A stretch of DNA of 60,221 nt from Candidatus Micrarchaeia archaeon. Its GTDB lineage: Archaea; Micrarchaeota; Micrarchaeia; Anstonellales; J096. Location of the stretch: NCBI GenBank assembly GCA_041500865.1, contig JBGQMY010000005.1:1-60221 (forward strand), written 5' to 3'. Positions 17,137-59,820 of the stretch are shown here, piece after piece (position 1 is the stretch's first letter; each line of letters opens with the position of its first letter). Made by a program: the position numbers and the translations under genes. The notes under the pieces were generated by a model. The model saw only the letters and a program-made list of their open reading frames with translations, had not been told where the DNA came from and did no database searches.

Positions 17137-19767
17137 ATGAATGGAATAAATCTTAAGAAGTTGGGCGCAATAGTCGCCGGAGGAGCAATTTTGGCTAGCT
17201 CTGTGGCTTTTGCTGGACTTGTTTTCCAGAACACGGAACTGGTTAACGCGAATGGCCAGCCGGTCGTAAAGATCGTCGTTGGCGAGAACGCGGCGGCTTC
17301 CGACGGAGTTGCAGCAGCCATGATAGCGACCAAGATCGCTAACAGTGCGTATGCCAGCAAGGACTACACTGCCGCGGTTCAGGGAACTGCGACATGCGTG
17401 GCCGGCAACGGATCCACTGGAGGAGCGACCTGCACGGTGACAGACAAGACCGTGACCCTCGAGATAGTATATCCGGGCATGACCGGAACCACTATCACTG
17501 AGTTCAAGCCGCTGATAGCCGAGACGTTGGACAGGACACTCGACAACAGGAACGTTGATGACAACGACGTAACAACGGACCTGATGGACGAGAAAGCACA
17601 GCCATTCCAGGACCAGGACGGCAATTTCCTTGCCGACGCTGGAATAAACGAGGTCGGGGGCGTGGGTGACACGTACTATATGATAGACGGAAGCAAGCTG
17701 AACGCATTTGCGGACTACACAATGTCCAGCGCACAGCAGTCGTCAAGCTCGTTCACCGAGTCCCAGAGGATATTCCTCAAGGGAAAAACGGCATACGACA
17801 GCTCCGAGAAGGCAATCGAGTACGTACCTGACACGACACTATACCAGATCGTGTTCGGGCCGGACGAAGACGGCCTTTCCCTCTGCCCTGGAGACACATC
17901 CCAGAGCATAGGAACCTGCGGAGTCAACGATGAGCTCGGCAAGAACAGGTACGCGCTGAAGCTGTTCGGTGAGCAGTGGGTAATAAGCGGAGTCGAGGGA
18001 ACGACCGGAGAAGTGAAGGACTACGCCGGACTCAACGACTTCGTCAGCGACAGGTCGATATCCGTGCCAGCATCTTCAGTGTTCAAGCTGAAGCTTGCAA
18101 AGGAGGCAAAGTACAACCCAGCGCTCCACAAAGGGGAGTGCATGAACACCACGGACGTGAAAATCTGCCTTTCGGACATTGCGAGGGAAACGGGAGAAGG
18201 AAACACCCACCCGGCGATTCTGTCAATATATGACACCGCAGGGAACCTCGTGACTGAAAAGCAGGTTGCAGAAGGCGCGACAGAGACTGTCACAGTCGGG
18301 AGCAAGGACGTAAAGATACATGTCTACCAGACTGCGCCTGGTTACGCCATGCAGGCAATGTGGGCCGACATCGCAATCTACATGGACGAGATAGAGCTCA
18401 ACGAGGGCAAGGCGTTCACCTACGGAATAAAGGGATATTCCGGAGACGAGTCAAAGTGGAACGTCTACTTCGGCCTTGTTGACAAGAACGGACCCGAGGA
18501 CAATGTGACTGTGGCCGATGCTACAGGGCTCAGGACACTGACCTTTGCGACTTCGGACAGCGATGCGCAGGGAGGCGGGGACGTCTACACGGGCGACTCG
18601 TACTATGTGATAGACACGGCAAAGTACCAGGGCTTCGAGGTAAAGAACAACGGCCTTGAAACTGCTGCCATGGACCCGCTGAAGTTTGAGTGGAAGTACA
18701 GCGGATCGGCGCCTGTTGCGAACATAACGAAGTACGTGAAGATAACGACAAGCCAGGACAGAGGGTTTGAAGTCAATGGCGAATCGTGGAAGAAGGGAGG
18801 CTTAGTCATTATCGGGTACAACGAGACAGCCCCGATGATAGCGCTGAAGGACTATGACGGCGACTGGCATTCCGCGGCTTACTCCGGCCAGGACGTGAAG
18901 TACACGTGGGCAGGGGACGAGGGAGACATATACACGATCGGACCCAGCGGAACGTCTGACTCTCCGGGCGACTTCGCTGTCTACTTTGACGAGAATGTCG
19001 GAAAGGTGCTCGACATTGACTCCTCCGCCGTTAATGAGATAGAGATGGACATTGACGCGACGAACAACGAGATCAACACGGGTTCCACCGACACTGACCT
19101 GCTGCGCTACTGGCAACCCTTTACTCCTTCGGCCTACGGCGACGGGTATGGGTACGATGACGACCAGACAGTGGAAGTTGGATTCGTGACCATGAGGGGA
19201 AGCGAGTACTCCTCGCAGTCCAAAACCACAAGGACCATCCAGGTCCCGAAGAGCGTGAGGCATGTGCAGATGGCGCTGATGCCGACTTCGCTTAACGCGT
19301 CAAGGAACTCCGAGATAATCGGGCCTCTCCACGAGGGAGACTCAGCTACCGTTGGCGGAAGCATAACGGTGACTGTGGACGCAATAAGCGTGGTGGACAC
19401 TGCAACAGTTAGCGGAGGAACCTCCGGTGCGGCGACTGCTGACATGAGCGGAGTGACGGCCGTCATAAAGGACGCGTCGGGAGCTTCAATGTCAACGCTG
19501 ACAGCGCAGAGCGTCTATGCTGTAGACCCCGCGACCCTGACGTACCTGGATTCCCAGGCACCTGCGACAGGAACCGTGATTACCGTTGGCGGACCCAAGG
19601 TAAACTCGGTGACCGCTGCAGCGATGCAGGGAGCTGCGATTGACCTTTCAGCCGCAAACCCCGTAGTTACTACGGAGGCGGGTGACAAGATAATCGTGGC
19701 CGGATGGACCGCTGCCGACACAATAACGGCTGCATCCAACTTTATCGCGGCGCTTAAGGCACAGTGA
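17137..19767 (+). CDS. S-layer protein
   Basis: Signal peptide; VVGENAAASDGVAA N-terminal and VGGPKVNSVT...IIVAG.TAADT C-terminal S-layer motifs; strong GAGGTGA RBS. Confidence 0.9.
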   Translation: MNGINLKKLGAIVAGGAILASSVAFAGLVFQNTELVNANGQPVVKIVVGENAAASDGVAAAMIATKIANSAYASKDYTAAVQGTATCVAGNGSTGGATCTVTDKTVTLEIVYPGMTGTTITEFKPLIAETLDRTLDNRNVDDNDVTTDLMDEKAQPFQDQDGNFLADAGINEVGGVGDTYYMIDGSKLNAFADYTMSSAQQSSSSFTESQRIFLKGKTAYDSSEKAIEYVPDTTLYQIVFGPDEDGLSLCPGDTSQSIGTCGVNDELGKNRYALKLFGEQWVISGVEGTTGEVKDYAGLNDFVSDRSISVPASSVFKLKLAKEAKYNPALHKGECMNTTDVKICLSDIARETGEGNTHPAILSIYDTAGNLVTEKQVAEGATETVTVGSKDVKIHVYQTAPGYAMQAMWADIAIYMDEIELNEGKAFTYGIKGYSGDESKWNVYFGLVDKNGPEDNVTVADATGLRTLTFATSDSDAQGGGDVYTGDSYYVIDTAKYQGFEVKNNGLETAAMDPLKFEWKYSGSAPVANITKYVKITTSQDRGFEVNGESWKKGGLVIIGYNETAPMIALKDYDGDWHSAAYSGQDVKYTWAGDEGDIYTIGPSGTSDSPGDFAVYFDENVGKVLDIDSSAVNEIEMDIDATNNEINTGSTDTDLLRYWQPFTPSAYGDGYGYDDDQTVEVGFVTMRGSEYSSQSKTTRTIQVPKSVRHVQMALMPTSLNASRNSEIIGPLHEGDSATVGGSITVTVDAISVVDTATVSGGTSGAATADMSGVTAVIKDASGASMSTLTAQSVYAVDPATLTYLDSQAPATGTVITVGGPKVNSVTAAAMQGAAIDLSAANPVVTTEAGDKIIVAGWTAADTITAASNFIAALKAQ

Positions 19768-48381: not shown

Positions 48382-49902
48382 TCAGCCGCGGGCAATGCTT
48401 ACGGTTGCCGTGTACGCATTCAGGTCCTTGCTTAACACCGAAATCTCGGCAGACGTGGAATTGGTTATCCTGACGGTCTTGGACGCGCCTGGCGCAACCA
48501 TCACGTTTGAAACGAGATCCCCGCCGGCATTGTAAACTTCAAATATGGGATTGTTCGGGCTGCTTGAATCAAAGTCGTAAAGGCAAACCTTGGCAACGTC
48601 GTTGCTGACGCACTCGTCAAAGCCGATTGTGCCGCTCACGGCGTTGTTGCCGATTTTCGTGTCCGTTGCAGACACAAGCGCCCAAACCGAAGAGCCGCTT
48701 GCCATGGTTCCATAGACGTATATCATTACGGCATTGCTGTCGTCAACATTAACCTGTTCTGAAGCTCCTTGCGCGATCTGTATGTTTGACGAGAACTTGC
48801 CGTTCGCGCCATAGACTGTCAATATGGCATCATGCGTCTTTGTGTCCATGTCAGAAAGGCAAACGCTGGCATGCGACGTGTTGACGCACTCGTCGTAGAA
48901 AAGCAGCCTGCCGCCGAAATCGGACGATGTGTACTTGACTGTCGTGTTGGCCCATGCCGAGCCGTTGGTTATTATTGTCTGCGAAACCGTGATCAGGATG
49001 TCCTTGCCTCCCCCTATAACTATCGATGTGGGGTCCTGCACCTGGACCATGACATTTGATATGAACTTGCCGTTCGCGCCATAGAGCGAGAAAATCGCCT
49101 GGTGCGGCCAGTCCACTGCAACGTCCTCAAGGCAGGCGCTGGAATTTGCAAGGTTTACGCAGTCGCCTATCTGTAGCATCCCCTGGGAGACCAATACTGA
49201 CTGCCTGGAATAAATGCCGGAGTCCCTTATGTATACAAGCGCCTGTATGTCGCTTCCGTTTATGGCGGTAGAGTAAACCGAGACGTATATGAACTTGCCG
49301 TTCCCGAGCGATGCAATTCCGTTGCCGTTTGGCGCGACCTCGATGTTGGATGAAAGCTTGCCCTTGGCGTCATAGACTGTGAGTATGGCGTCGTTGGGCG
49401 ATTCAGCCGCAAGGTCGGAAAGGCACACCTTGCCGTTTGACACGGTTAGGCAGTCGTTGTAGTGCAGCAGCCCGCCCGAGCCGTTTATGGTGTTAGCAGT
49501 TATCGTGTTGTTGGCCGGATGGCTGTTCCTGCCCGAGCTTGACGAGCCTGAGTTTCCGCCGGACGAGCCTCCGTAAGTGCCGGTATCATTGTAGACAATC
49601 GTTATGTTTGTGTGGTTGCTTACTGTGCCATTGGTCAAGTTTGAAGTTGTGTTGATTATGTTGCTGGCATTGGCGCTTTGGTTGGCAATGGCGCTCCCGT
49701 TGCCTGAGATGTTCTTGGGTATTGAGGCATTGGCCAAAACATTGGTTGCGTTTGCAACCACATGCGGAACTGAGGCATTGGCAGTGATGTTTTCCTGAAC
49801 AGTGTCGTTCGCCCCGGCTCCGGACAGCGTCATGTAGCCGCCTACGCCCAGCAGCAGCACTGCGCCAGCAAGGAGGAAAGATGCCATTATCTCGTTTTTC
49901 AT
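48382..49902 (-). CDS. Surface protein with four S-layer-like modules
   Basis: N-terminal TM, Asn/Ser/Thr-rich linker with many N-x-S/T sequons, 4 x (C..VCLSD..AILTVY..GK..SN) modules resembling an S-layer segment. Confidence 0.8.
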   Translation of the reverse strand: MKNEIMASFLLAGAVLLLGVGGYMTLSGAGANDTVQENITANASVPHVVANATNVLANASIPKNISGNGSAIANQSANASNIINTTSNLTNGTVSNHTNITIVYNDTGTYGGSSGGNSGSSSSGRNSHPANNTITANTINGSGGLLHYNDCLTVSNGKVCLSDLAAESPNDAILTVYDAKGKLSSNIEVAPNGNGIASLGNGKFIYVSVYSTAINGSDIQALVYIRDSGIYSRQSVLVSQGMLQIGDCVNLANSSACLEDVAVDWPHQAIFSLYGANGKFISNVMVQVQDPTSIVIGGGKDILITVSQTIITNGSAWANTTVKYTSSDFGGRLLFYDECVNTSHASVCLSDMDTKTHDAILTVYGANGKFSSNIQIAQGASEQVNVDDSNAVMIYVYGTMASGSSVWALVSATDTKIGNNAVSGTIGFDECVSNDVAKVCLYDFDSSSPNNPIFEVYNAGGDLVSNVMVAPGASKTVRITNSTSAEISVLSKDLNAYTATVSIARG

Positions 49903-49960
49903 GTTCAGCCACCTTTATTACGATATTTATTACGATATCATCCAAATTTAAAAAAACAAA

Positions 49961-51430
49961 TCAGTATTGGATGCCCTGTCCCAGTGCGTTCATGCCTTCT
50001 GTGGATATTACATACCTTCCTGCAGGGAGTGTTGAAAGGTCAACGATGCCCCTGTTCCCGTTGAACGGAAGCGAGACGACCAGCCTTCCTGAGACGTCAA
50101 AGACGCTCGCGGTATGGTTTCCGGGCTTTGCGAACACAAGGCCGTACCTGTTGTGCGAGAGCTGCACTATCCTGTCCATGTGCGCCGTAAAGAGCCCCTT
50201 TGACGTGTTCAGCACGCTGCCGACCGGGATGCTGGACTCTATGTTGGCTGTGGCGAACGCCGAGTTCTTGCCGACTGCAAGGTCTGTTATCGTTATTGTC
50301 AGTGCCTTGCCGTTGCGGCCAGAGAACGTTGCTTCCTTGCCCACGGTTGCCTGCACGGTGCTGCCGTTGACGTCAAACACAGCGATTGAATCGTGCGCAT
50401 CCACAAGCTTTATCGTCCCGAAGGACGTGTCAAGCGTGACCGATTGGCCCAGCGTGAAGATGGATGTGTTCTGCACCGGCTCAACCGCCAAATCCGCCGT
50501 CACCGTAGTTCCGACTTGGCTTGCATCCTTTGCCGTTATGGAGATGCCAATGCCAGTCGCGCTGTCAACTATCGAAACGGACTTGTTTATGCTGAGCTGT
50601 TCGCTGATTGTTGCGCCTTTTGGCGTCTTTACCGTGGCCGCGACATAGCTCGCGGTTCCGGTGGAATCCACCTTTTGGCCTATGCCCGTAACCGATATCG
50701 TGTATCCGTATGCGCTCAGCGGGGCGCTGTTTGTTACGCTCTTTACTGTGTTGACATCCGTTACCTGGAGCTCAACCGAGGATTCTGAGAACGTTGAAAC
50801 TGTGCGAATTGCCTTGATGTCAACAGCCTCGCCCGGCGTTGCGCCAACGGCAACCCTCTTCGTCTCGCCTGGCCCTATCTGGATGATTGAGACGCCCCTA
50901 ACCGTGCGGATTGTAAGTATGGCATCATAGCTGCCGTCCTTGTTCGGAACCCTGGCAAAGTCTGTTGCTGTTATGCTGGTCCCGAGCGTGTCCTTGGACG
51001 CCCCCTGATTAAGCGTAAAGGCCGTGTCCGGCCCTGTCAGCGATGTGGTGTCAAACGAGAACCAGATGGTCCTGACGCCGACTGTAACGCCCAATAGCTT
51101 GACGTTGGTTTTGTCAACGACCATTGAGTCCCCTTCCCTTATCGCTGTTTTGCTGGATGAGCCTCCGGCCGGCGTGACAGTAAGCAGCGCGCCGTATTTT
51201 CCGTTGCCGTCCTTTGCAAGCAGGGAATCGGGGCTAAGCGTTGTGTTGTTCTTTGTGCTGAAGGCCTCTCCCTTTTTCAGCAGAAGCTCTGTTGCCTGTG
51301 CCGTCACGGCAGCTGCCGTGGTAAGCGCCAAAACCGCTTTCCCGGCCATAGAGAAATAACGTCTCGCCTTTGACTTTTTGTTAACCGCAGGCGCTGTGCC
51401 CGCAACCGAGGATTTGATTGAATTTGCCAT
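49961..51430 (-). CDS. Exported beta-rich protein with C-terminal T9SS type-A-like sorting domain
   Basis: Basic leader plus signal peptide (AVTAQA); C-terminus SVFDVSGRLV...VDLSTLPAGRYVI. Confidence 0.75.
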   Translation of the reverse strand: MANSIKSSVAGTAPAVNKKSKARRYFSMAGKAVLALTTAAAVTAQATELLLKKGEAFSTKNNTTLSPDSLLAKDGNGKYGALLTVTPAGGSSSKTAIREGDSMVVDKTNVKLLGVTVGVRTIWFSFDTTSLTGPDTAFTLNQGASKDTLGTSITATDFARVPNKDGSYDAILTIRTVRGVSIIQIGPGETKRVAVGATPGEAVDIKAIRTVSTFSESSVELQVTDVNTVKSVTNSAPLSAYGYTISVTGIGQKVDSTGTASYVAATVKTPKGATISEQLSINKSVSIVDSATGIGISITAKDASQVGTTVTADLAVEPVQNTSIFTLGQSVTLDTSFGTIKLVDAHDSIAVFDVNGSTVQATVGKEATFSGRNGKALTITITDLAVGKNSAFATANIESSIPVGSVLNTSKGLFTAHMDRIVQLSHNRYGLVFAKPGNHTASVFDVSGRLVVSLPFNGNRGIVDLSTLPAGRYVISTEGMNALGQGIQY

Positions 51431-51539: not shown

Positions 51540-52130
51540 CTACTTTTCCATGCGCCTGAGCGCCTCATACGCCCCGTAAAGGAACATTGCTGCGCCCAGC
51601 ACAAGCGCGCCATAGAGCAGCATAGGGCTTGGCTCCTGCGTGGCTGCGGCAGGGACAGCGGTGGCATTGGCCTCCTCTGCGGCTGATGGATTCTGCGCCT
51701 CTGCGCGAGCCGTAAGCACCATAGTCCCGTTTTCATCAGGCGCGATGCCCGCAGCTGCAGGCGACAATAGCTGCTCCGGGGAAGGGGCCGGATAAAGGAT
51801 GGACATTCCTGAGAATGCCATGAAAACCAGGCCGAACGCAAGCAGCAGGATTGCCCTTGTGGGGAACCCGGGCTTTGGCGCGGCCAGCTTCCTGCCAATC
51901 GCAGTAAGCTCGTAATACTTCCATTTCCTGCCCTCATCAACCTTTTCCAATAAACCGGCTGATTCGAGGTGCGCCAGGTGCTCAAGGACCGTCGGGGAGG
52001 AAAGCCCCAGGCTTTCGGCCAATTGGCTCTGCGTCTTTCTCCCGTTTGCAAGCAATTTCAGTATTGAAATCCTGCTTTCCGCGCCTATCGCCTTGAGCAG
52101 CGCCCTGTTTATCACGACCTCGTCGTCCAT
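51540..52130 (-). CDS. ArsR-family HTH regulator with C-terminal TM segments
   Basis: LKAIGAESRISILKLL...SQLAESLGLSSPTVLEHL..LESAGLL..KWKYYELT; 2 TM. Confidence 0.88.
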   Translation of the reverse strand: MDDEVVINRALLKAIGAESRISILKLLANGRKTQSQLAESLGLSSPTVLEHLAHLESAGLLEKVDEGRKWKYYELTAIGRKLAAPKPGFPTRAILLLAFGLVFMAFSGMSILYPAPSPEQLLSPAAAGIAPDENGTMVLTARAEAQNPSAAEEANATAVPAAATQEPSPMLLYGALVLGAAMFLYGAYEALRRMEK

Positions 52131-53055: not shown

Positions 53056-53775
53056 TTAGGCAACGCACTCGCCGAAGGATTCAAAGAACGCGCCTGGAAG
53101 CGATGCCATGAATTTTAGGAACTGCGCTGTTTGGGTGCGCTCGTAAGTCGTGGCACCGTCCGTTGCCCTGTCCAGCGGCGTTTTGCGTTCCTTGTCCCTT
53201 GCTGCCAGAAGGTCATTTATGTCTCCGCCCTCCCTTATGTATTTCCCGAGCAGAAGGGCGCAGGTTTTTACATGCCCGTTCCATGCGGCGCTGTGCATGG
53301 GCGTCATGCGCTGCCTGTCCTTTGAGAAAATCAGCTTCTTTGCGTCCCCGCCGGCTTTTTTGTATGCCTCGATAATCAAGATGCACGTATCCGTGTATCC
53401 ATACTCCGCGGCATTGTATATGGGCGTTCTCTTTTCTGACCTTGTCTTTGCGGTAATTAGTTTTTTTACGTCCCTGCCTGATTTTGCGTATTCTTTTAGG
53501 AGCAGGGCGCAGGTTTGGGTATGGCCGATCGATGCGGCCCGGTGCAGGGCCGTCACGCAATCATCGCCCCTTGCGTCCAGGCCTGCGCCGTTCCTTATCA
53601 CCTGCAACACCTGCAGGTTGTTCCCTTTGCCGGCTGCGTCCAAAAGCTCGGAATCAAGCGACTTCTGCTCCCAAAAGTCCAATGCCGGCTTCTCGCTTGG
53701 CAGGATGTCCTGCCTTGGCTTTCTTGTTTTTGCCTTTTCAATCATCCGCATTAGGAATGATTTTCTTTCCTGCAT
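53056..53775 (-). CDS. Ankyrin-repeat protein (ank6)
   Basis: TALHRAA, TPIYNAA, TPMHSAA; C-terminus FFESFGECVA; start chosen from promoter spacing. Confidence 0.92.
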   Translation of the reverse strand: MQERKSFLMRMIEKAKTRKPRQDILPSEKPALDFWEQKSLDSELLDAAGKGNNLQVLQVIRNGAGLDARGDDCVTALHRAASIGHTQTCALLLKEYAKSGRDVKKLITAKTRSEKRTPIYNAAEYGYTDTCILIIEAYKKAGGDAKKLIFSKDRQRMTPMHSAAWNGHVKTCALLLGKYIREGGDINDLLAARDKERKTPLDRATDGATTYERTQTAQFLKFMASLPGAFFESFGECVA

Positions 53776-53805
53776 GTTTCCATTGTGCGGCAAAGGAATT
53801 AAAAT

Positions 53806-53880
53806 AGCGCCGCAGCGCACCAACTGTTTTCTTTTGAACCCAAGGGCCTTTTCTTTGCGAAAGAAAAGGGGCTTTTTTAA
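53806..53880. repeat. Intergenic palindromic repeat family copy
   Basis: gcgccgcagcgc; ttcttttgaacccaag (16 nt identical to about 29955); ccttttctttgcgaaagaaaagggg. Confidence 0.75.
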
Positions 53881-58038: not shown

Positions 58039-59820
58039 TCAGCGGACGTATGCCGCGGTTATCGGCATGGCCCTGCCCCTTTCCGAAAGCGAGATTATGT
58101 AGATTCCGGGCGGCAGGCCCATCCTGCCAAGGTCTATTGTCGCCTTTGACCTTGCAGTTACGCCGCCGACCGCCCTGCCTCTCATGTCAATGACAGAAAC
58201 GCGGTGTGGGGCGTTGTCGCCGAAGATTATCTCATACCTTCCCTGCCCGACAGGCCTGGCCTGGCCAGGGAGAAGCAGGGCGCGGCCCTGCCCTATGGAT
58301 GCGTTTACCGCAGTGTAGTCCTTGCCATAGAGGAATCCGCATATCAGCGGGTCATAAGGGTATTTTGCGCCATAAAGCGAGTCAGGAACCCTGAACTGCG
58401 TGCTGGATTCGTCTCCGAGCGTGAGAAAAGCCGTGTCGCCAGGCGCAGGGACCTTGATGAACCGCCACATGACAAGCGAGTCAGCGCATAATTGCGGCGT
58501 TGTGCTGTCAGTCACCATCTTGTATGTGGTGCCGTCCTCGGCTGTTCCACCGAACCTCGCGCGCCCTTTCATCAGCGTGTACCAGGGTCCTGTCCTTACT
58601 GTGCTGTCCTGGAAGAACATTGTCTCAAGCTCCGGAATGGAAAGCGTATGCAGGACGCTGTTAAACGGAAATGCTATGTTGGCAAACTGGATGCCTGGGT
58701 TGACGAGCGCGCCCTTCCTTCCGCCATAGCCTGTGAAAGGGACAAGCCGTTCAGGAACAGGAAGCCTGAATACGTCATAGGGCTTTGTTGTCACCGAAGA
58801 CGCTTCGCCTGGGTTAAGCGCATAATTGGATAGATACCACATGTGTTGGTCAAGCTCGGCGAAAACAAACCTTACAGAGTCCACTCTCGCAGATACGTCA
58901 TATGGCGCATTGGTGTCGGCTGGGTTGATTTTCCAAAAGACCGTATCGCCAACCCATGCAAGGAAATGGTTATCTGTCGAACCGGGCTTTGGTACTGGAT
59001 AATTGCTGTAAGGCCGCACAAGCTGGTGCATGTTATCTGCTGAACCGCCTGGATAAAATGAAACCGCGCCATTCTGCATATCGGCACTTGATATGCCAAG
59101 CCATCTTCTTTTGTTTCCCCAGTTGCCGAACCCGTAATTCCAGGCATGGTTGAATGATACCGAAGGAATAGACAGGCTTATGCAAAATGTGTCAATAACC
59201 GCGTTTGCCGTCCTATCGAACATTTTGACAAGGTCTGCGCTCAGCACCATGGAGCATTGCATGATTGGAAACTGCGATGCGTCGCCCATTCCAGACGGGA
59301 TGTAAGACGGATGGCCGCTTGACCATGAGATGTTCGTATGCGGAATGGTTCCGCTATTGAGTTCCCATGCCCATTTCCTGTCCCTTAGGCTGGTCCTGAA
59401 GTCATTGAAAGCGTATTTTATAACGTATTTCAGCGAGTCGCCGCCTGCATAGTAAAAGCCGTGTGAAATCCAGACATTGTACGTCATTCCGCTTGATGGG
59501 TCTAACACAAAATACGGCGCTGATATCACAGACATGCTGTTGATGCCCATCTGTTTTTCAGAGGAATAAGTTGAAATCGGGTTTGACTTTAGGTAGTTCC
59601 TCACCGCTTCCTTGTAGAGGTCAACGCCGGGAGTGAACATTATCTTTGACGGAATTTGGGCCGCAAGGGCGGAAACGACAACCAAAGAAGACAGCGCCGC
59701 AGCCCTGCATACGGATGCCGTGCCTTCCTTGAACCTGGCCAGGAACGGCTTCTTGCGCTGTTTATGACACTCGCAAACACGCGTTCCTTTCAGCATCCCC
59801 ATTTTGATACGCCTTTGCAT
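58039..59820 (-). CDS. Exported protein with C-terminal T9SS type-A-like sorting domain
   Basis: Long basic leader plus hydrophobic signal (VSALAA); C-terminus SVIDMRGRAV...IDLGRMGLPPGIYII. Confidence 0.72.
   Translation of the reverse strand: MQRRIKMGMLKGTRVCECHKQRKKPFLARFKEGTASVCRAAALSSLVVVSALAAQIPSKIMFTPGVDLYKEAVRNYLKSNPISTYSSEKQMGINSMSVISAPYFVLDPSSGMTYNVWISHGFYYAGGDSLKYVIKYAFNDFRTSLRDRKWAWELNSGTIPHTNISWSSGHPSYIPSGMGDASQFPIMQCSMVLSADLVKMFDRTANAVIDTFCISLSIPSVSFNHAWNYGFGNWGNKRRWLGISSADMQNGAVSFYPGGSADNMHQLVRPYSNYPVPKPGSTDNHFLAWVGDTVFWKINPADTNAPYDVSARVDSVRFVFAELDQHMWYLSNYALNPGEASSVTTKPYDVFRLPVPERLVPFTGYGGRKGALVNPGIQFANIAFPFNSVLHTLSIPELETMFFQDSTVRTGPWYTLMKGRARFGGTAEDGTTYKMVTDSTTPQLCADSLVMWRFIKVPAPGDTAFLTLGDESSTQFRVPDSLYGAKYPYDPLICGFLYGKDYTAVNASIGQGRALLLPGQARPVGQGRYEIIFGDNAPHRVSVIDMRGRAVGGVTARSKATIDLGRMGLPPGIYIISLSERGRAMPITAAYVR

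Follow-up and report, generated by a model that had tools for sequence, protein, structure and literature searches.

The stretch of DNA considered here, referred to as the window, is a contig of 60,221 nucleotides (C5) belonging to a Micrarchaeia genome, G000, which comprises 1.04 Mb in 36 contigs and is estimated to be 92% complete. Its subject is a gene named P0001, whose product combines modules of archaeal S-layer type with a C-terminal domain (CTD) resembling the type A sorting domains of the bacterial type IX secretion system (T9SS). Its open reading frame (ORF) lies exactly where the initial annotation had quoted it. The encoded protein is devoid of Cys, and its AlphaFold model is all-beta, with a mean predicted local distance difference test score (pLDDT) of 73. 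From the N-terminus to the C-terminus, the gene and its parts are the following.

49961..51430, reverse strand: the whole P0001 gene, a single ORF of 489 amino acids plus the stop codon.
51350..51430, reverse strand: residues 1-27, a basic N-terminal extension with six K/R and no D/E, conserved at the amino-acid level.
51293..51349, reverse strand: residues 28-46, a putative signal-peptide hydrophobic core leading to an AQA (A-x-A) cleavage motif, delimited by inspection of the alignment (pLDDT below 50).
51041..51292, reverse strand: residues 47-130, beta module D1, delimited on the model, with a weak internal likeness to D2 (33.5%).
50747..51031, reverse strand: residues 134-228, S-layer-type module D2, the one quoted in the initial annotation (hhalign 93.4%, P 2.4e-7, 87 columns).
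50471..50746, reverse strand: residues 229-320, D3, a beta sandwich related to D2 (D2 against D3, 83.1%).
50225..50470, reverse strand: residues 321-402, D4, a second S-layer-type module (hhalign 82.3%, P 1e-5, 78 columns).
50180..50224, reverse strand: residues 403-417, a flexible linker (pLDDT below 50 for residues 401-418) with the lowest conservation of the protein, at a mean pairwise identity of 0.28.
49964..50179, reverse strand: residues 418-489, a diverged T9SS type A CTD-like domain of immunoglobulin (Ig) fold that keeps D-x-x-G-R and G-x-Y and has lost YPNP and the terminal lysines.

The relationship of the tail to T9SS type A CTDs is supported by several comparisons. The NCBI model of the T9SS type A sorting domain, TIGR04183, matches residues 434-476 with 27.6 bits (E 2.2e-6) for a cut-off of 23, and the match stops 12 residues before the stop codon. 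Among 10 aligned members of the P0001 family, to which all counts out of ten refer and of which eight are full-length, TIGR04183 is matched by 10 and PF18962 by eight at E ≤0.01. The profile of the P0001 tails aligns with that of 19 canonical Micrarchaeota CTDs at 97.6% (hhalign, P 3.8e-12, 70 columns), against 60% only with the Ig repeats of the giant proteins of the same genome. The modelled tail is a beta sandwich that superimposes on the CTDs of mirolase (8qb1, Z 8.1), NucA (8glk_D, Z 8.0), RemA (8gl6_D, Z 7.8) and FspA (8glj_D, Z 7.7), and its neighbours according to a protein language model are Bacteroidota Por_Secre_tail clusters (score 0.93), which is taken as a lead only. From these profile comparisons, the tail is concluded to be a true, albeit diverged, homologue of the T9SS type A CTD. 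Besides PF18962, no Pfam family is detected in P0001 at E up to 10, and none of the NCBIfam sorting-signal models other than those of T9SS gives a match. By inspection, there is likewise no archaeosortase-type (PGF-CTERM) signal, the protein ending in ...EGMNALGQGIQY without a hydrophobic helix.

In bacteria, type A CTDs bear motifs designated A to E, among which the lysines of motif E, in the last 13 residues, are needed for secretion, according to the parts of a 2023 review devoted to these signals (PMC10202324, section 12 for the lysines). Seven residues are invariant in the tails of the P0001 family, namely G448, R449, D464, S466, L468, G471 and Y473, and they define the patterns D-x-x-G-R and L-x-x-G-x-Y. 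In our own reading of the same source, D-x-x-G-R is B-like and G-x-Y is D-like. Motif A (YPNP) is missing from the tails of the family, in agreement with the initial annotation, and no lysine is found in the last 13 residues of eight of the 10 members, as compared with at least one in 19 of 19 canonical tails. With a mean pairwise identity of 0.63, against 0.48-0.57 for D1-D4, the tail is nevertheless the most conserved domain of P0001, which is why it is regarded as functional and not as a passive relic; judged from these alignments, it is more strongly constrained than the remainder of P0001 and clearly under selection.

The body of P0001 relates to a second family, that of the S-layer proteins of the same archaeal order. 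The reference for the comparison is a module of the S-layer gene located at 17137-19767 on the forward strand, in which the segment cited for comparison in the initial annotation is found and which itself matches PF05124 with 53.8 bits.

18118..18393, forward strand: reference S-layer module, inside the S-layer gene 17137-19767.

This module of about 90 residues is present once in the S-layer protein of the order, which has about 900 amino acids; among 61 genomes, 45 have it, in S-layer ORFs of about 600-1100 amino acids. In the comparison of a 34-sequence profile of the module with the profile of the P0001 family, residues 136-248 align at 83.6% (P 8.2e-6) and residues 320-407 at 40% (P 2.9e-4); taken domain by domain against the same module profile, D2 and D4 reach the values listed above, and D1, D3 and the tail do not exceed 4.2%. 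As controls, the alignment was reversed, which yields 0.2%, and its columns were shuffled 30 times, with a highest value of 0.4%. D2 and D4 are therewith probable distant homologues of the S-layer module of the order, without this amounting to identity of function, and the term S-layer-like modules is a fair label for about half of the body. The structural matches of D3 include CcmF (residues 512-608, Z 9.0) and the DUF1608 domain of a Methanosarcina S-layer protein (Z 6.9). For the whole 489-residue model, Foldseek returns a mixed list with TM-scores ≤0.16, in which the S-layer DUF1608 structure 3u2g (probability 0.98) and PorZ (0.90) provide a hint only, and a profile search of P0001 against the sequences of the PDB gives nothing at E < 0.09. 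With the S-layer protein of PF05124 type and with P0002, the product of the adjacent gene, P0001 shares an alignment of D2 and D4 over the whole module, an all-beta constitution and, for P0002, a gene that adjoins its own; it differs from the S-layer protein in that the two conserved cysteines of the module are missing, in that it is half the size and in that it has no Pfam S-layer match (none to PF05124 at E up to 10).

The N-terminus of P0001 begins with the basic extension, followed by a short, Ala/Thr-rich hydrophobic core and by an A-x-A site before T47. The extension and the site are kept in all eight full-length homologues, with A or V at position -3 and A at position -1 in each of them. 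Since three homologues lack an internal Met usable as a later start, the extension is considered to be translated; a start at Met28 was examined and rejected on these grounds and because the extension is conserved. A Tat signal, suggested by the sequence ARRYF, was rejected as well, as the RR pair is not kept in the homologues. By inspection, the N-terminus would thus correspond to a Sec-type signal that can be cleaved and whose n-region is unusually long, leaving a mature chain of about 443 residues. Long basic N-terminal extensions also exist in several CTD proteins of sister families. The architecture advanced in the initial annotation, in which a basic extension and a Sec-like signal ending in AQA precede modules resembling the S-layer segment of the genome and a tail of T9SS type A pattern, has therefore held at each of these points: the chimera is supported by the profile comparisons, at 93.4% for D2 and 82.3% for D4 with controls that remain at or below 0.4%.

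The distribution of P0001 is narrow. Eight homologues with 49-81% identity are found among 5.8 billion clustered proteins, and four clusters of the family are found in a set of 1.84 billion representatives, identity falling to 32% for the most remote of them. The nearest named homologue is attributed to ‘Candidatus Micrarchaeota archaeon’, and two related public records are metagenome-assembled genomes (MAGs) of Micrarchaeota/Micrarchaeia. In a search of 121 genomes of the order, the full-length family is confined to three genomes of the same genus (g1), G000 included, and is absent from the other 118. No significant paralogue was detected in the genome by pairwise BLASTP and phmmer against all 6366 ORFs. 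On the scale of these searches, the family appears tiny and restricted to the genus.

The gene is native to the archaeon. The order of the genes around it (MFS transporter, SIMPL, ArsR-like regulator, P0001, P0002, tRNA and GyrA) recurs, the tRNA aside, at a second locus, L091, where the P0001 orthologue is about 50% identical. The reading frame is intact in 10 of 10 family members, all of which possess the tail, and the contig of 60 kb also bears the archaeal S-layer gene mentioned above. The junction between tail and body is spanned without any difference by two contigs of the Logan collection, one of 3090 bases from a sediment metagenome (X1, aligned on 49700-50341), which possibly is the source sample, and one of 416 bases from an independent run (X3, 49957-50372); the contigs of X3 and of a further run, X2, cover only parts of the stretch, from which nothing is concluded. 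Because of the synteny in L091, the presence of the family in all three genomes of the genus and the bridging of the junction by an independent contig, P0001 is considered as a native and vertically inherited gene that results neither from contamination nor from misassembly; the initial annotation had argued against contamination from the S-layer-like modules. That it is an artefact, either a contaminating bacterial contig or a chimeric assembly of an archaeal gene with a bacterial tail, has a negligible probability, since nothing speaks for it beyond the bacterial affinity of the domain family, and the S-layer gene on the contig, the gene order of L091, the tail in 10 of 10 homologues and the X1 and X3 contigs all speak against it.

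Downstream of P0001 lies a second gene of surface-protein type.

48382..49902, reverse strand: P0002, 506 amino acids, with an N-terminal membrane helix, an Asn/Ser/Thr-rich stalk and four tandem S-layer-type modules.

Each of the modules of P0002 contains two conserved cysteines, and the whole protein has 23 N-X-S/T sequons, i.e. 4.5 per 100 amino acids. The pairing of the two genes is kept in L091, with a gap of 14 nucleotides, and P0002 is likely the operon partner of P0001. A complex prediction between residues 47-489 of P0001 and residues 140-506 of P0002 gave a score of 0.01, which has no bearing either way. Directly upstream of P0001, in a position that is also kept in L091, an ArsR-type winged-helix regulator is encoded at 51540-52130 on the reverse strand (HTH_5, 44.5 bits), the C-terminal half of which looks, by eye, like two membrane-spanning stretches. 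Two genes upstream of this ArsR-like neighbour, an ankyrin-repeat protein is encoded at 53056-53823 on the reverse strand (Ank_2, 79.2 bits).

The window contains a further protein that shares the layout of P0001 and ends in a degenerate CTD-like tail.

58039..59820, reverse strand: second protein with a CTD-like tail, 593 amino acids, with a long basic N-terminal extension and a signal-like stretch ending in AAQ.

Its tail matches TIGR04183 with 21.9 bits, over a segment that stops 13 amino acids from the C-terminus, and the profile of the P0001 family at E 1.6e-7; its body is an orphan without Pfam match at E up to 1. Elsewhere in the genome, two giant surface proteins have been observed. 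One, of 1752 amino acids (G000:C18:1781-7039, reverse strand), contains 16 near-identical Big_13-type repeats of about 95 residues and has 8.4 N-X-S/T sequons per 100 amino acids; the other, of 4407 amino acids (G000:C2:24618-37841, reverse strand), displays by eye a subtilisin-like protease region and a C-terminal transmembrane helix. Hits of Por_Secre_tail type in giant proteins were considered as possible internal CTD repeats, an interpretation that was rejected given that Big_13 scores 162 bits against 69 and that the P0001 tail is nearer to the terminal CTDs than to these repeats.

Canonical T9SS tails exist in relatives of this archaeon. Of 151 genomes examined for the phylum, 13 match TIGR04183 above its cut-off, with a concentration in the order to which G000 belongs; at E ≤0.001, a match is obtained in eight of the 10 genomes of one family (f2). 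When 27 CTD loci were translated, 24 were found to end 0-23 residues past the match. Of the 19 strongest canonical tails, 14 include PNP, and the last 13 residues contain one or more lysines in all 19 and two or more in 15. Usual endings are ...KMLLVK or ...KIMLLK. Textbook tails, reading YPNPF... and ...K..LLK, score up to 49.6 bits. Examples, carried by lineage-specific proteins in an archaeal chromosomal setting, are found at L088:7893-9167 (G012:C3) and L089:6625-8394 (G109:C30). One canonical CTD gene (PF18962, 34.2 bits), on a contig of 249 kb, has an ATP-dependent DNA ligase on one side and two FtsZ genes on the other. Its product is named by NCBI ‘T9SS type A sorting domain-containing protein [Candidatus Micrarchaeota archaeon]’, and this automatic name is the sole trace of T9SS tails in DPANN, the superphylum of ultrasmall archaea that includes Micrarchaeota, that was encountered. 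A literature search on T9SS tails or sorting domains in Micrarchaeota, DPANN and archaea, which did not extend to supplementary tables, found no paper discussing DPANN tails.

The product of the 249-kb contig has relatives through its tail only: all 119 non-self hits listed contain PF18962, with 18-40% coverage of the query and 36-59% identity, and their named sources are Ignavibacteria, Calditrichaeota, Kryptobacter, Chloroherpetonaceae, a Peregrinibacteria MAG and ‘bacterium’. Tails that resemble those of bacteria on bodies that have no bacterial match point to gene flow from such bacteria. In four of four canonical orthologue or paralogue pairs, the identity of the tails (0.45-0.76) exceeds that of the bodies (0.23-0.33). 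Bacterial-type tails have been captured, fused to lineage-specific archaeal bodies and then retained. One entry of the same hit list, P0094, is a ‘T9SS type A sorting domain-containing protein, partial [Candidatus Peregrinibacteria bacterium]’; this may reflect erroneous binning and, taken at face value, would place a CTD in a further lineage of ultrasmall symbionts, presumably with a single membrane.

Several known systems share part of these features with P0001. Bacteroidota T9SS type A cargo proteins such as RgpB, NucA, RemA and mirolase have in common with it a Sec-type signal at the N-terminus and, at the extreme C-terminus, a domain of about 70 residues, modelled in P0001 as an Ig-like sandwich, with the D-x-x-G-R and L-x-x-G-x-Y motifs and a match above the NCBI cut-off. 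They differ from it in that its host is an archaeon where no T9SS core gene was found, that YPNP and the lysines of motif E are missing and that its Pfam score is below the gathering threshold. The canonical-tail proteins of sister families (e.g. P0014, named by NCBI after the T9SS type A sorting domain) belong to the same order and show the same succession of signal, orphan body, linker and terminal CTD, with a tail more conserved than the body, whereas their tails keep YPNP(F) and a K-x-x-x-K ending and their bodies are unrelated to that of P0001. Tannerella forsythia TfsA and TfsB, presented in part of PMC10202324 as S-layer glycoproteins and T9SS cargo, likewise combine an S-layer-type protein with a type A CTD; they are bacterial and truly exported by T9SS, and are likened here to P0001 by their description only. 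In archaea, a C25 peptidase of Thermoprofundales (MBG-D) is listed in part of PMC6461988 as an extracellular protein with a Por secretion C-terminal sorting domain. This peptidase is a cargo of bacterial type, consistent with the transfer of a whole gene, in contrast to P0001, where the cargo consists of native S-layer-type modules.

The T9SS itself was sought in G000 and in four CTD-rich sister genomes, where SprA, PorV, PorU, GldM and GldL have no match above cut-off, the hits to PorU (NF033707) being obtained only through the CTD part of the model. All 14 control genomes also remain below cut-off, so that the search has no positive control, and G000 is 92% complete; within these bounds we infer, rather than consider as proven, that the T9SS core genes are absent, as the initial annotation had assumed for archaea. 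The archaea of this order have one membrane. According to the sections of PMC10202324 dealing with these signals, T9SS CTDs do not occur outside Bacteroidota and follow the distribution of the secretion machinery, and recruitment of the cargo takes place in the periplasm of its producer cell.

With the architecture, the homologies, the native status and the conservation pattern observed as above, P0001 is probably a genus-restricted envelope protein of a sediment archaeon with a small genome, exported by Sec and associated with the S-layer, in which the tail serves as a plain terminal Ig-like domain for binding or attachment. In such a scheme, P0001 would leave the cell via Sec and its signal would be cleaved at the A-x-A site. 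The S-layer-type modules would serve to dock it within or onto the S-layer of the same cell, possibly in concert with membrane-anchored P0002, and the linker of about 15 residues would hold out the terminal Ig-like domain. The latter would act as a plain binding or attachment domain and not as a T9SS export signal, because no T9SS core gene was found in the genome and because motif A and the lysines of motif E have been lost. This corresponds to the alternative formulated in the initial annotation, in which the CTD had been co-opted as a plain Ig-like domain; it fits best, with the addition that this domain is more tightly constrained than the other parts of P0001.

A number of observations weigh against this interpretation or against the homologies on which it is built. 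PF18962 scores P0001 at 24.8 bits (E 2.6e-5), narrowly below its gathering score of 27. In structural comparisons of the tail, FN3, macroglobulin and DUF3244 domains tie with the T9SS CTDs (Z 7-8.9), and its fold is therefore compatible with the seven-stranded Ig-like sandwich of a CTD without being diagnostic. The likeness to the S-layer module is invisible in pairwise comparisons, no similarity between the S-layer protein and P0001 being detected by pairwise BLAST and phmmer; it rests on low-diversity profiles, and a hidden Markov model built from five sequences of the module reaches P0001 at E = 1.1 only. In bacterial CTDs, the conserved motifs are surface-exposed, as stated in a portion of PMC10202324, and the conservation of D-x-x-G-R and G-x-Y could equally mean that the tail has a specific recognition partner. 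The conservation of the tail, in P0001 as in the canonical versions, is indeed not explained by the view of a spare scaffold, and two bolder readings are therefore kept alive, one in which an archaeal system reads the tail and one in which the tail binds parts of a bacterial T9SS from outside.

According to the first of them, an archaeal machinery would read the tail as a genuine signal for sorting or attachment, in a role analogous to that of PGF-CTERM/archaeosortase or of PorU/PorV, and P0001 would belong to a small class of Micrarchaeota surface proteins that are processed or covalently anchored. This is unlikely, although it agrees with the recurrence of terminal CTDs in the order (13 of the 151 genomes of the phylum above cut-off, eight of 10 in f2), with the position of the stop codon in 24 of 27 loci, with the stronger conservation of tail than cargo in P0001 and in four of four canonical pairs, with the retention of motifs A and E by canonical tails on long archaeal contigs and with the unusually long basic N-terminal extension of several such proteins. 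On the other side, no PorU-type peptidase domain, PorV or SprA was found in the five genomes, each genome encodes merely one to five such proteins, no gene is consistently linked to them in three neighbourhoods and P0001 itself lacks motifs A and E. A broader proposal, to which only a small chance is given, is that the T9SS-type tails of the order are working recognition modules rather than borrowed scaffolds, either read by an archaeal surface-attachment system or docking surface proteins onto the T9SS of FCB-group bacteria (Fibrobacterota-Chlorobiota-Bacteroidota) from the same sediments. In that event, P0001 would represent a derived case, in which the binding face (motifs B and D) persists and the export face (motifs A and E) has disappeared.

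The tail could also be what is left, without function and in decay, of a bacterial CTD obtained by horizontal transfer. The loss of motifs A and E, scores that lie at the thresholds of the families and the existence of canonical versions in sister families are in line with decay. The chance of it is slight, however, as the tail tops the conservation among homologues down to 32% overall identity, with its seven invariant residues, and as the frame is intact in 10 of 10 members.

There remains the idea that the tail engages the T9SS of an FCB bacterium, either from within a bacterial host, where it would signal export, or from outside as a ligand of surface-exposed T9SS parts, which would imply a bacterial partner for the archaeon. 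In its favor, the canonical tails of sister families share 44-59% identity with tails from Ignavibacteria, Calditrichaeota, Kryptobacter and Chloroherpetonaceae proteins, on cargo bodies without bacterial match, and the existence of bacterial hosts for DPANN archaea is treated as an open question in the relevant part of PMC8204110. Two domains that may act on murein have also been observed in the genome: a Peptidase_M23 domain (58.3 bits) in a Cys-rich-repeat protein of 1243 amino acids (G000:C15:17917-21648, reverse strand), and an SLT lytic-transglycosylase domain (22.6 bits for a cut-off of 21.3) with a QQESGF motif in a protein of 834 amino acids with a lipobox-like N-terminus (G000:C22:17551-20055, reverse strand). 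SLT gives a match in each of the five Micrarchaeota genomes examined and in no archaeal control genome. Large SLT proteins of other DPANN lineages have been taken as hints of bacterial hosts in a passage of PMC8204110, and peptidoglycan hydrolases of archaea are able to kill bacteria according to part of PMC12352652; these domains have a weak bearing on the question and are leads, not evidence for P0001.

Against such an engagement, the gene sits in an archaeal chromosome, its tail lacks YPNP and the required lysines of motif E, its other modules resemble the archaeon's own S-layer and point to its own surface, and gene flow is no proof of present-day contact. To our knowledge, there is no route from an archaeal cell into the periplasm of a bacterium producing a T9SS. 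Recruitment of T9SS cargo in the periplasm of the producer, as described in part of PMC10202324, is at odds with it as well, and the listing, in part of PMC6461988, of a Por-CTD peptidase for Thermoprofundales, an archaeon not assigned to DPANN, detracts from a link with bacterial hosts. The export version, put forward in the initial annotation as delivery through the Sec and T9SS pathways of a bacterial host, fails because no machinery was found, the export motifs are lost and no route into the bacterial periplasm is known, and the engagement of an FCB T9SS as a whole has a very slim probability.

Under the preferred reading of an S-layer-associated envelope protein with a plain Ig-like tail, P0001 takes its place in an order that holds two forms of the CTD with no T9SS gene found: textbook tails carried by lineage-specific bodies, and an older, worn version carried by the archaeon's own S-layer modules. 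As the tail is the best conserved part in both, a function of the domain that is independent of T9SS export is suggested. The case is a clean example of domain capture across the divide between bacteria and archaea, in a DPANN genome, and it touches, without answering it, the question of the association of DPANN archaea with bacteria, left open in the part of PMC8204110 concerned. The order-wide retention of canonical T9SS tails in the absence of a T9SS is the more interesting result and is still unexplained. If the docking of such tails onto FCB bacteria were true, together with the murein-hydrolase domains, a bacterial partner of a DPANN lineage could for the first time be approached at the molecular level.

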